NCBI GenBank assembly: GCA_050256555.1
Contig: JBBWWC010000145.1
Span: 1 to 38,625 of the forward strand
Length of the DNA: 38,625 nucleotides
Direction of reading: 5' to 3'
Source: Planctomycetota bacterium
Lineage (GTDB): Bacteria; Planctomycetota; UBA8108; UBA1146
The translations under genes were made by a program, and so were the position numbers. Shown in pieces: positions 29,721-33,423 of this stretch. The stretch's first letter is position 1, and the number at the start of each line of letters is the position of its first letter. The notes under the pieces were generated by a model, which worked only from the letters and a program-made list of their open reading frames with translations, was not told where the DNA came from and made no database searches.

Positions 29721-29841
29721 CTTCCTCCTCTGACCTGACTCATGAGATGGACGGAGTATCCCCAAGCGGCAGGAAAGCCGCAAGGTGCCTCTTGGGCTTC
29801 CCGGTTGTCCCGACTACCCTGACGCTGACTTGAGGAGGCCG

Positions 29842-31617
29842 ATGAACATCACAATGCTCGCCATTGCTAGTGCTGTCGCACTGTGGCTCGGATATCGCTT
29901 CTACGGCCAGTGGGTGGCGACTCGCGTATTCGGTCTCGGCGAGATCGCCGATCAGCAGATGCCCAGTCATCAACTCGAGAATGGGGTCGATTTCGTGCCA
30001 ACGAAACGCTCCATCCTGTTTGGCCATCACTATGTGACGATTGCAGGAGCGGGCCCCATCGTCGGACCGGCAGTCGCCGTCACCTGGGGTTGGTTGCCGG
30101 CATTACTGTGGGTCGTATTCGGCGCCATCTTCATCGGAGCCGTACACGATCTGGGAGCGCTGGTACTCTCGGCAAGAAACCAGGGCCGCAGTATCGGCGA
30201 TCTATGTGCCGAAATTTTGTCGCCACGGGTTCGGCTACTATTTCTGATCTTCATCGCCCTGGCCTTGTGGGTGGTGCTGGCGGTGTTCGCATTCGTCATC
30301 GCCAGTTTGTTCGTCGCCCGTCCGGAGAGCATCCTGGCGGTGTGGATCGAAATCCCGCTGGCGATCTTTGTCGGCTGGCAACTGACACGTGGCAAATCGA
30401 TGGCGTTATGGGGTGGATTAGCCCTGATCGTGATGTACAGCTGCATCGGCATCGGCTCGAGCGACACCATGCGCTCCTTCTTTGCCTTCGACTGGGGTGG
30501 TGAAGAAAACTGGCTGGCACAAAACGCCAGTCTGTTCTGGTTGCTGATGTTGTTTGGCTACTCGTGGATCGCCAGCATTCTGCCAGTCCAGAAACTGCTG
30601 CAACCGCGCGATGCCATCAACTCGCATCAACTGTTTCTGGCTCTCGGCGCGCTGGTGACCGGATTACTGGTCATAACAGTGACCGGTGGACCACAACTGG
30701 AAGTGGTCGCCCCGGCCATCAATCCAGATCCTCCGATCGATGCCCCGCTCTTGTTTCCATTCTTATTCATCACCATCGCCTGTGGAGCTGTGAGTGGTTT
30801 TCATTGCATGGTCGCCAGCGGCACCACTTCCAAACAACTCTCCAGTGAAAAGGATGCCCGTAGCATCGGATTCGGTGCAATGATTCTGGAGGGTGGGCTC
30901 GCAGTGCTCGTCATTCTCTGTTGCGTCTCTGCTGCAGGATTTTCCAGTAGCGAAGAATGGGCCGCTCAGTACTCGGCAGACTGGGTCGGTAAGGGATCCC
31001 TGCTGGCCCGACTCTCAGGGTTCATTCACGGAGGCGCTGCTTTCATCAGCGCAGCACTTCCCTTCTTCTCTCTCGAGTTTCTTGCCACGGTCATCACTGT
31101 CGTCATCATCTCGTTTGCGGCCACCACGATGGATAGCGCCACTCGAATCCAGCGCTATGTCATCCAGGAACTGGCCGAAGCCACCGGCTTGAAGTTCATG
31201 TCTCATCGTCAGGTTGCGACTGCATTCGCTGTACTCTCCGCCGCAGCGCTGGCCCTGCTGGCAGGACAGGGGGGAAAGGGCGGCCTGGTGTTATGGCCCA
31301 TCTTCGGCGTCACCAATCAGCTACTGGCCAGTCTCACCCTGGTGGTTCTGACGACCTGGCAAGCCAGACGTGGTCGCCCCATCTTTCCGACACTGCTGCC
31401 TCTCGTCTTTCTCACCGCCACTGTCGGGTGGGCCGCCATCACCCAGATGCAAGGATTACTCGCAGCAGAAAAGATTGAGTGGCCACAGGTGGCTCTGCTC
31501 GGCTTCGGCATGCTGCTACAACTCTGGATGCTGGTTGAAGGTTTGCTTTGTATTCAACGTTCTCGAAGCGGCGAAAAAGATGGCCGCGTCGATCCGTCAG
31601 GAGTAGTTCACTCCTGA
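29842..31617 (+). CDS. cstA: Carbon starvation protein CstA family transporter
   Basis: GVDFVPT, FGHHYVTIAGAGPIVGP, ITIACGAVSGFH and LWPIFGVTNQLLA; ATG at 29842 after GAGGAGG. Confidence 0.92.
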   Translation: MNITMLAIASAVALWLGYRFYGQWVATRVFGLGEIADQQMPSHQLENGVDFVPTKRSILFGHHYVTIAGAGPIVGPAVAVTWGWLPALLWVVFGAIFIGAVHDLGALVLSARNQGRSIGDLCAEILSPRVRLLFLIFIALALWVVLAVFAFVIASLFVARPESILAVWIEIPLAIFVGWQLTRGKSMALWGGLALIVMYSCIGIGSSDTMRSFFAFDWGGEENWLAQNASLFWLLMLFGYSWIASILPVQKLLQPRDAINSHQLFLALGALVTGLLVITVTGGPQLEVVAPAINPDPPIDAPLLFPFLFITIACGAVSGFHCMVASGTTSKQLSSEKDARSIGFGAMILEGGLAVLVILCCVSAAGFSSSEEWAAQYSADWVGKGSLLARLSGFIHGGAAFISAALPFFSLEFLATVITVVIISFAATTMDSATRIQRYVIQELAEATGLKFMSHRQVATAFAVLSAAALALLAGQGGKGGLVLWPIFGVTNQLLASLTLVVLTTWQARRGRPIFPTLLPLVFLTATVGWAAITQMQGLLAAEKIEWPQVALLGFGMLLQLWMLVEGLLCIQRSRSGEKDGRVDPSGVVHS

Positions 31618-31619
31618 AA

Positions 31620-32588
31620 TCAACGCGAGCAGAAGCCTCGATGCTTCTGATAATAGTCCTGGTGGTATTCTTCAGCGCGCCAGAAGGTCGGAACCGGAGT
31701 GATGACCTGAGTGCAGAAGGTACGGCCGCCGAAGGCCCGGTCTTCTGCTAGCTTCTCCATCTCTTGCTCTACCTGCTCTACCTCATCTGCATCGTTACAG
31801 AAAACCACCGAACGATACTGACTGCCAACGTTGGGGCCCTGCTGATCAGGAGTGGTCGGATCATGCAATCCGAAGAATAGACAGGTCAGTTGCTGGAAGG
31901 ATACCTGTTGCGAATCGTAGTGAATCTCGACCGCCTCAGCATGCCCCGTCTCGCCACTACATACCTGCTCATAGGTAGGGTCTTCCACATGACCTCCCAT
32001 GTAACCGGAGATGACGTCAACGACGCCATCGAGGCTCGCAAAGCGATCCTCGACTCCCCAGAATCAGCCACCACCAAACCAGGCACGAGACAGTTGTCGA
32101 TCGGAACCAGTATCTTCCATCGGCTCGTCAGGAATTTCATGAGGGATCGATTGCCCTTCCGGATAGAAGTGCAATGCCATTGAATTGAGACAATGACGGG
32201 TACCCGTCGGTGGCGGTCCATCAGGGAAAACATGCCCCAGGTGCGCATCACAGCGAGCGCATGTGATCTCGATGCGAATCATGCCATGACTCTCATCGCT
32301 GTTTTGACGGACATGCTGCCGATCAAAGGTCTCGAAAAATGACGGCCAGCCGGTACCGGAGTCAAACTTGTGCTCCGACCGAAATAGTGGCAGCTGACAA
32401 ACAATACAGGCGTAGACACCGGGCTTCTTCTCGGCCAGATGGCCACCACAGAAAGGAGCTTCCGTACCGGATTTCTGGGTCACCTGATGCTGTTCTGGAG
32501 TCAAAGCTGCAACCAGCTTTTGATGCTGACCAGGAGTTGGTGGACTCAGTGGATAACCACTGACAGAGACTTCAGGTTCAGAAACCAT
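31620..32588 (-). CDS. msrBA: Bifunctional MsrB-MsrA methionine sulfoxide reductase with in-frame UGA (probable selenocysteine) at 32066-32064
   Basis: MsrB (CIVC, KFDSGTGWPSF, CARC, HLGHVF, RHCLNS) runs into AWFGGG-TGA-FWGVE and continues in frame to GYMGG...PTYEQVC...GHAEAV...QYRS...AEEYHQDY. Confidence 0.85.
32028..32054 (-). promoter_or_regulatory. Candidate bacterial SECIS hairpin
   Basis: GTCGAGG-A-TCGC-TTT-GCGA-G-CCTCGAT, starting at +10 after the UGA. The loop lacks the usual G. Confidence 0.5.
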
Positions 32589-32715
32589 GACATCCACCCT
32601 TCGCTCAGAATCTCTTTCGATGGCCACATCGAGCCGCCAACGATGGTACCCTCGGTTCCAACCGATCCCAAATGGAAGATTCATCGCTCAAAATCATGAG
32701 CAGATGGAGGTATGC

Positions 32716-33423
32716 GTGGAAGATACAGAAAACCCGGAAATACCGGCACAGGAACAAATCACCTGGGAACTGTTCCGCGATCGGTTCATCGCAGCCCTGG
32801 GACCTTTTGCGCCCGGCTTCGCACGTGAACAACTGGCCAGGCACGCATGGCTGGTTCGCGAAAAGAATCAGGTGATGAATCTGACCCGAGTGGTCGATCC
32901 CGAAGCGATGGCCATCCGGCACACGGCAGACTCGCTGGCTGCACTACCTCTGCTGGCAGAAGGCGGCGAGCAGATCTTCCATCACATTGTCGATCTCGGA
33001 ACGGGAGCCGGATGGCCCGGCCTTTCGATCGCCATCGCCTGCCCGCATCTCAAAGTGACCCTGCTCGACTCGACACGAAAAAAAGTCGATTTCCTTCAAA
33101 CGGTCGTCGATGACCTGGGCCTCCAGGATCGGGTGAACTGCGTCTGGGCTCGCTTCGAAAACTGGGCGAGAGAGCACCGCAAGAGTATCGATCTATTGAC
33201 CGTAAGAGCAGTCGGACCTGTTGATCGATTACTCGGCTGGTGCACCAATAATTATTTCGGCCCGATGTTGTTATGGAAGGGACCTGCCATCGACAAGGAA
33301 ATGAAGGAGGTCGAGGGCTTGATGTGGAAACGTCGCCTGTTCGTTGCTCTCGATGAACCGTATCAAATTCCTGGCGATGATGCAGTACGTCGACTGATTC
33401 TCATCGATCACCAGCGAAGTTAA
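32716..33423 (+). CDS. rsmG: 16S rRNA m7G527 methyltransferase
   Basis: MNLTR, RHTADSL, VDLGTGAGWPG, LLDSTRKKVDFL and VRAVG; GTG at 32716 after GGAGG. Confidence 0.92.
   Translation: MEDTENPEIPAQEQITWELFRDRFIAALGPFAPGFAREQLARHAWLVREKNQVMNLTRVVDPEAMAIRHTADSLAALPLLAEGGEQIFHHIVDLGTGAGWPGLSIAIACPHLKVTLLDSTRKKVDFLQTVVDDLGLQDRVNCVWARFENWAREHRKSIDLLTVRAVGPVDRLLGWCTNNYFGPMLLWKGPAIDKEMKEVEGLMWKRRLFVALDEPYQIPGDDAVRRLILIDHQRS

Follow-up and report, generated by a model that had tools for sequence, protein, structure and literature searches.

Gene organization and reading frame

The window, i.e., the whole stretch of 38,625 nucleotides that was analyzed in this study, is contig C145 of a metagenome-assembled genome (G000) from an uncultured marine Planctomycetota bacterium. 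This genome was 2.82 Mb in size, consisted of 323 contigs and was approximately 80% complete. On the minus strand of the window, the frame from 32588 to 31620 encodes a polypeptide of 322 amino acid residues when TGA is read as selenocysteine (Sec or U), and it contains one internal TGA, codon 175 (WFGGG-U-FWGVE). This TGA (32066..32064) is located at the position of the catalytic Cys in the GCFWG motif of MsrA, within the string TGG TTT GGT GGT GGC TGA TTC TGG GGA GTC GAG that was found at 32081..32049. The gene, referred to here as msrBA, and its two TGA codons are as follows:

31620..32588, minus strand: msrBA gene, 322 codons plus a terminal TGA, with an ATG at 32588 and an in-frame UGA taken as Sec
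32064..32066, minus strand: UGA codon 175, very probably read as Sec at the MsrA catalytic position (GGG-U-FWG)
31620..31622, minus strand: true stop codon, also a TGA, at which the conservation of the frame ends

The start Met was kept in four of the five orthologs from the same genus. Under translation table 11, msrBA is split into an ORF of 206 amino acid residues (32064..32684) that ends with WFGGG and an ORF of 126 residues (31620..32000) that begins at a Met within the conserved GYMGG motif; gene finders cut the fused msrBA in two. A preliminary description of this DNA had placed the TGA exactly on the Cys of the MsrA GCFWG motif, quoted the same string of codons, noted that the rest of MsrA was listed separately as the ORF 31620..32000 and proposed a Cys-MsrB/Sec-MsrA fusion of about 322 residues whose other MsrA and MsrB motifs were intact. 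Results from this study bear out these statements. The position of the TGA and the quoted string were both confirmed on the minus strand, the ORF list agreed, the size and architecture were as proposed, and the MsrA motifs were whole, with Pfam matches that were nearly full length on both sides.

The neighboring genes leave little room around msrBA. The convergent cstA (29785..31617, PF02554) and msrBA end 2 bases apart (31617-31620), and there is therefore no intergenic space for a terminator. At the other side, the divergent rsmG/gidB ORF (32587..33423, PF02527) overlaps the start of msrBA as called. The start of the rsmG/gidB ORF probably lies further in than called.

Domains and cysteine residues of the msrBA product

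The polypeptide consists of two domains that are joined by a linker, and it ends shortly after a conserved Cys residue:

32163..32504, minus strand: MsrB (SelR) domain, residues 29-142, Pfam PF01641, E 2.3e-48
32085..32162, minus strand: linker, residues 143-168, which varied in length and sequence among orthologs in the protein alignment
31638..32084, minus strand: MsrA (PMSR) domain, residues 169-317, Pfam PF01625, E 1.3e-55
31629..31631, minus strand: codon of Cys320 (HRGFCSR end), a candidate recycling Cys that the family's two Cys forms also retain

The match to PF01641 covered positions 1-115 of the 116 positions of the model and scored 163 bits (cut-off 24.9). The features of an MsrB were all present, including the profile match, the catalytic Cys in an RxCxN motif and two CxxC zinc pairs. 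The Cys residues of this domain are the catalytic Cys133 (RHCLNS), the CxxC pairs C61/C64 and C110/C113, and Cys47 (APFCGG), and all six were invariant in the 18 full-length Sec-form orthologs. The match to PF01625 crosses the TGA, covering positions 2-148 of the 153 positions of the model with a score of 188 bits (cut-off 23.7).

The MsrA part contains Cys210 (VCSG), Cys264, Cys292 and Cys320, and the protein ends at residue 322. None of the 18 Sec forms deviated from Cys at positions 210 and 320. Moreover, Cys320 was aligned with the Cys of the C-terminal GYC in mammalian MsrA (1fva, 1fvg, 2l90 and 6agv; position 218 of 6agv_A), and the match to the E. coli chain 1ff3_A ended at its residue 198, which was aligned with Cys320. 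In the mammalian and E. coli enzymes, the GYC Cys that is aligned to Cys320 is the one that acts first in recycling. As judged from these alignments, Cys320 is a candidate partner that may form a selenenylsulfide with Sec175.

Of the 18 Sec forms, 15 have Cys and three have Ser at position 264 (VVF-C-ND; 31797-31799, minus strand), where all nine non-Sec forms have Phe, Tyr or Val. This distribution indicates that Cys264 arose together with Sec.

Conservation of the in-frame TGA and selection on the downstream frame

The fused gene with exactly one TGA was found in 24 of the 28 species genomes of the family, which comprises seven genera. The TGA forms were from four genera, including 6 of 6 genomes in g1 (to which the genome of the window belongs), 9 of 9 in g5, 8 of 8 in g7 and 1 of 1 in g4. 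The fused gene was without a stop in G006, G007, G010 and G013. Among the 40 relatives compared, one TGA was found in the orthologs nearest to msrBA of the window. Of the 30 loci whose codon was read, 21 had TGA, seven had TGC or TGT at the same codon and two had lost the motif (G006 and G010). All 21 TGA codons were the U codon of GGG-U-FWG; for G041, G042 and G043, the TGA was taken from the family-wide count. The presence of TGA at this one codon in all 21 of these related loci is far beyond chance. The seven loci with a Cys codon were those of G007 and G013 in the family, both with TGC, and those of five genomes that belong to other families, to other orders or to the class at large.

The identities between the whole protein of the window and those of the TGA orthologs were 56–77%, and those downstream of the TGA were 55–81%. 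The dN/dS ratios between msrBA of the window and 15 orthologs ranged from 0.07 to 0.17 downstream of the TGA, and they ranged from 0.06 to 0.16 upstream of it in the 10 pairs where they were computable. Two near-identical and three partial rows were excluded from this set, and the ratios are rough, as dS was saturated (>1). Judged from these ratios, the frame after the TGA is clearly under purifying selection.

In a maximum-likelihood tree of 27 near-full-length rows, from which three partial rows were dropped, the 18 Sec forms were all on one side of a branch with support of 93/91. With the midpoint root, the only root used, they were nested among the Cys forms of the family and of other orders, and one change from Cys to Sec is therefore enough to account for them. 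The simplest scenario would be that the change arose once, in the ancestor of the four genera of this marine Planctomycetota family. Cys forms share the same order of domains, so that the MsrB-then-MsrA order predates the Sec codon.

The fused MsrA domains of G006 (L043) and G010 (L044), which represent two genera of the family, were without an active site. They had GGGFNG and VGAEEG, respectively, in place of GGCFWG, and their QYRS motif was also altered. Their rows were on long branches, and a separate stand-alone MsrA was found in each genome. From its sequence, the fused MsrA domain of these two genomes looks degenerate or repurposed.

Two stand-alone MsrA genes with a TGA at the catalytic codon were also found. 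They are L087 (G039:C55:21900-22900, plus strand; ATFGAG-U-FWGVE) and L088 (G033:C255:7200-8200, minus strand; ATFSLG-U-FWGGE), which belong to two other families of Planctomycetia. Both are probably independent Sec-MsrA forms. Given that stand-alone MsrA with TGA occurs in two more families, Sec-MsrA is recurrent in Planctomycetia.

Hairpins after the UGA codon

The 63 nucleotides around and after the UGA were predicted to fold as two adjacent hairpins (−27.2 kcal/mol, z −2.2):

32031..32051, minus strand: hairpin H1, candidate SECIS (GAGG-A-UCGC UUU GCGA-G-CCUC)
32010..32030, minus strand: hairpin H2, directly after H1, with 9 base pairs and a GUU/GUC loop

The stem of H1 starts 12 nucleotides past the UGA, and its apical loop is 21 nucleotides past the UGA. 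In the alignment of 21 TGA orthologs (19 distinct), 98.7% of the cells of H1 were paired. Its pair 21:31, which couples a synonymous site in an Asp codon with a codon for Ser or Ala, was CG in 10, UA in 5 and UG in 4 sequences and was never unpaired, i.e., the changes were compensatory. Similarly, pair 39:55 of H2 was CG in 7, UA in 7 and UG in 5 sequences. RNAalifold recovered the same helices. The covariation score of H1 and H2 together was reached by none of 500 shuffles, a test that is inflated by the kinship of the sequences, and pairing dropped to 28–55% in slid controls. Because GAC and GUC are complementary, the codons for DGVVDV by themselves impose part of the H2 pairing. H2 may belong to the SECIS, or it may simply result from the sequence coding for DGVVDV.

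The H1 pairs were kept at a mean of 7.9 of 8 in the 21 TGA forms, compared with 2.9 of 8 in the seven Cys forms; for H2, the means were 8.6 and 5.3 of 9, respectively. G007 (L037), which has TGC, is 55% identical and is among the nearest Cys forms, kept seven of the eight H1 pairs. H1 is therefore not strictly exclusive to the TGA forms. Either H1 is older than the Sec codon or the lineage of G007 reverted from Sec to Cys.

Bacterial SECIS elements typically have a G in the loop. The apical loop of H1 is UUU or UUC, without a loop G. A scan of 31500-32700 against Rfam, with E values up to 1, found no SECIS family; its sole match, to Pospi_RY (E 0.73), was below the gathering threshold and at the level of chance.

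Machinery for selenocysteine decoding

The genome of the window possesses the components for decoding UGA as Sec. Its tRNA-Sec scored 62.5 bits (Rfam cut-off 47) and was identified by ARAGORN as SeC with the anticodon tca. The scores for selB, selA and selD were 379, 517 and 349 bits, respectively, each over its curated cut-off. In addition, selD carries its own in-frame TGA at the active-site loop (SCSG-U-AAKI) and is of the Sec type. Across the family, selA and selB were each found in 27 of the 28 genomes. Given that these included the genera with Cys-MsrA, the Sec trait predates the Sec codon of msrBA.

In the genome of the window, selA, the Sec-containing selD and the tRNA-Sec gene are in a row on contig C196 (L017, G000:C196:2569-6495), and selB is on C7 (L001).

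Other candidate selenoproteins of the genome

The genome was scanned for in-frame TGA codons with coding potential on both sides that were aligned to Cys in paralogs. The coding filter reduced 12,224 candidates to 1,423, and paralog matches that span the TGA were found for 86 of these, from which ten clear cases were chosen by eye. In eight of these ten, a Pfam domain spans the TGA at the position of a redox Cys, and the organism therefore uses Sec widely. The eight cases were four AhpC/TSA-like or TlpA-like proteins (three with WUGPC and one with SUGAC), a DsbH-like thioredoxin (WUGWC), an SCO1/SenC protein (CSGI-U) and two DUF1573 proteins (UGC). Besides SCO1/SenC, their loci are L071, L072, L073, L074, L075, L077 and L078. 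The UGC form of DUF1573 is a known selenoprotein according to PMC13188914. Similar to msrBA, the other candidate selenoprotein genes of the genome also had hairpins soon after the UGA.

The SCO1/SenC gene is at L076 1-807 (minus strand; G000:C146:1667-2473), with further loci at L081-L086. PF02630 spans its TGA, which is in the CxxxC motif (CSGI-U). The best ortholog match had a TGA in 22 of the 28 genomes of the family, from six genera, with identities of 53–68%; two of these 22 matches contain a second internal stop, and the position of the codon in the relatives is presumed. The selenoproteome review PMC13188914, from 2026, does not use the terms SCO1, SenC or PF02630 in its main text. SCO1/SenC may be an unlisted selenoprotein family.

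Some candidates were not accepted as selenoproteins. In L079 (G000:C283:3332-4876, minus strand), whose product carries a cytochrome c554 domain at its C terminus, the CG-U motif aligns to CGC of a paralog and the TGA is outside any Pfam domain, which leaves this candidate uncertain. Many low-complexity paralog matches were likewise set aside, as was a repeat protein on C39.

Alternative readings of the UGA codon

The UGA could be read by a normal tRNA, near-cognate Trp or Cys, or TGA could be a sense codon, in which case residue 175 would not be Sec. Low-level near-cognate read-through of UGA does occur in bacteria. However, TGA was the commonest stop, ending 420 of the 821 long ORFs of the genome as well as msrBA itself, and thus it is not reassigned genome-wide. 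The full Sec pathway is present and conserved, in-frame TGA codons are found at redox Cys positions across the genome, and the hairpin linked to the TGA is conserved. Moreover, MsrA would be inactive with Trp at the catalytic site, which does not fit the purifying selection on this domain that the ratios given above show. We regard reading by a normal tRNA or as a sense codon as very improbable.

The TGA could also be a nonsense mutation or an assembly error, so that the gene would be a decaying pseudogene or MsrB would be made alone. Such a reading would fit the split under table 11 into ORFs of 206 and 126 residues, the lack of a full-length relative with more than 55% identity in the database and the treatment of such genes as broken by gene callers. 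Against it are the TGA in 24 of 28 genomes from four genera, at the same codon in all 21 loci read, the dN/dS of 0.07–0.17 downstream, the intact MsrA motifs and the TGA in an independent contig. The last came from public sequencing data. Parts of the stretch were contained in 19 marine metagenome runs from 12 studies, one of which is possibly its source, and four of the 19 runs were compared with the window. A contig of 151 nucleotides from another study's RNA library (X17) covers 32040-32190 with no difference, including the TGA. It is only a hint of transcription and may derive from DNA in the library. DNA contigs of X4 and X6, which are from other studies, also span the TGA; 26 of their differences were unplaced, and only X17 is certain. 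Gaps in the cover by X5 carry no weight. Considered together, a nonsense mutation or an assembly error is extremely improbable, and conservation among the relatives already refutes this reading.

That two separate products are made, with MsrB ending at the UGA and MsrA starting independently downstream, is hardly credible: an ATG is present at 32000, but it encodes Met197 of the internal GYMGG, its product would be without the catalytic GxFWG segment, no start codon occurs from the UGA up to the GYMGG motif, the frame is continuous in all orthologs, and each Cys form is one fused protein.

Thus, UGA 175 very probably encodes Sec, as the preliminary description had proposed. That description had named the Sec machinery, the read support for the TGA and the codon of the orthologs (TGA versus TGY) as checks on the proposal, along with what would speak against it, and every one of them came out in favor of Sec. 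The genes selA, selB and selD and tRNA-Sec are all in the same genome; the independent RNA-library contig carries the TGA; and the TGA is not private to one strain, as it is found in 24 of 28 family genomes, with Cys codons in more distant orthologs.

Comparison with known MsrA and MsrB proteins

Reviews treat MsrA as established among the bacterial selenoproteins and give GUFWG/H as its motif (PMC13188914; PMC9312934). It is among the selenoproteins described for Syntrophobacter fumaroxidans (PMC1794560), and the Global Ocean Sampling (GOS) account of surface metagenomes gives 9 Sec-MsrA compared with 4,678 Cys homologs (PMC2398784). "Bacterium-like" Sec-MsrA is also described in picoplanktonic green algae (PMC6627142). 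PMC13188914 and PMC6627142 thus bear out the remark in the preliminary description that Sec-MsrA with GUFWG is found in a few bacteria and algae.

Similar to the msrBA product, Sec replaces the catalytic Cys of MsrA in CoMsrA of Clostridium (Alkaliphilus) oremlandii (PDB 4LWJ). As described in PMC4333827, CoMsrA is a stand-alone protein of 209 amino acid residues of the 1-Cys type, without any Cys and with an extra C-terminal helical domain, and thioredoxin does not recycle the enzyme. Different from CoMsrA, the MsrA of the msrBA product follows an MsrB domain in the same chain, keeps Cys210 and Cys320 as conserved residues and has just two residues after Cys320. Neither of the features of the CoMsrA type, i.e., Sec without other Cys and the extra C-terminal helical domain, was found in it. 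CoMsrA is also the more distant relative, as the MsrA domain of the msrBA product scored 73–78 bits with the 4lwj group and 113–118 bits with mammalian and E. coli MsrA. The lower score with the 4lwj group suggests that the change from Cys to Sec in msrBA was independent of that in CoMsrA.

The fused architecture is also known. The MSRBA architecture is mentioned in PMC6211008, and the 120 best protein matches listed were all full-length fusions of the Cys type, 309–407 amino acid residues in length and 48–55% identical to the msrBA product. Several of these 120 have the NCBI name 'bifunctional methionine sulfoxide reductase B/A protein' and are from Phycisphaerae or Planctomycetia. The Planctomycetota Cys forms have the same MsrB-then-MsrA order and a similar length. 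They differ in having Cys at the MsrA catalytic position, and H1 was poorly kept in their genes (mean of 2.9 of 8 pairs). Among the 120 best matches listed from a collection of 5.8 billion protein clusters, no full-length protein was more than 55% identical, whereas the orthologs found at the DNA level reached 56–77%. These DNA orthologs are without a full-length protein entry, which shows that gene callers truncate the Sec forms.

Similar to msrBA, the solved fusions 3e0m, 5fa9 and 7e43 have both Msr domains in one chain. Their order is MsrA-then-MsrB, unlike that of msrBA: the MsrB match was at residues ~173–296 in 3e0m and 5fa9, and the MsrA match was at residues 38–184 in 7e43. No MsrB-then-MsrA fusion was found among the solved chains listed. 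The best solved relative of the MsrB domain was the MsrB 3hcj_A/3hci_A (E 2.7e-57, residues 10–152). 3hcj_A shares GTEAPFCG, both CxxC pairs and RHCLNS with the msrBA product, but it is a stand-alone MsrB. The Cys of APFCG is presumably the recycling Cys in the 3hcj enzyme.

A literature search found no report of a Sec MsrB-MsrA fusion in Planctomycetota, and supplementary tables of surveys may list such genes. The msrBA product is a new example of the known Sec-MsrA family in the known B/A fusion architecture.

Proposed mechanism

Taken together, we consider it highly probable that msrBA encodes one MsrB-MsrA protein of 322 residues with Sec175; in this reading, Sec would be inserted under the direction of SelB, Cys320 would serve in recycling and the Sec form would have a single origin. 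The product would be a single bifunctional enzyme with an N-terminal Cys-MsrB of the zinc type, a linker of ~26 residues and a C-terminal MsrA with Sec175. H1, possibly together with H2, would recruit SelB and Sec-tRNA(Sec) to the UGA, at which Sec would be inserted and termination avoided. By analogy to the mechanism of the MsrA family, Sec175 would attack methionine-S-sulfoxide and become a selenenic acid. The latter could then be resolved by Cys320 to form a Sec175-Cys320 selenenylsulfide, which thioredoxin or another thiol reductant might then reduce. The R-epimer would be handled by the MsrB domain via Cys133.

Selenium dependence and implications

Termination at the UGA would give a product of residues 1–174, which contains the complete MsrB domain and the linker. 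In a search with one query, the fused gene was the only msrA/msrB match in the genome of the window and in each of five congeners (genomes 79–94% complete). Given that it is the sole match, shortage of selenium would remove MsrA and leave MsrB. From the gene layout, a built-in switch, which the preliminary description had also put forward, would follow as a logical deduction: full-length MsrB-MsrA would be made when Sec is inserted and a zinc MsrB of 174 residues when RF2 wins. That such a selenium-dependent product switch operates and has been kept across four genera is a tentative proposal, which we consider rather unlikely. If true, the selenium of sea water would set the ratio of R-only to R plus S repair of methionine sulfoxide. 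In any case, the MsrB-then-MsrA layout is naturally suited to testing whether a truncated enzyme that is released at a Sec codon can be useful.

The results leave the knowledge of Sec decoding and Msr chemistry unchanged. They bear on annotation and on estimates of selenium use in the ocean, as standard gene calling hides Sec msrBA. For the organisms themselves, they mean that selenium dependence would extend across an entire family of uncultured marine Planctomycetota, as the only MsrA detected there would require this element, and that the family would have a rich selenoproteome besides.
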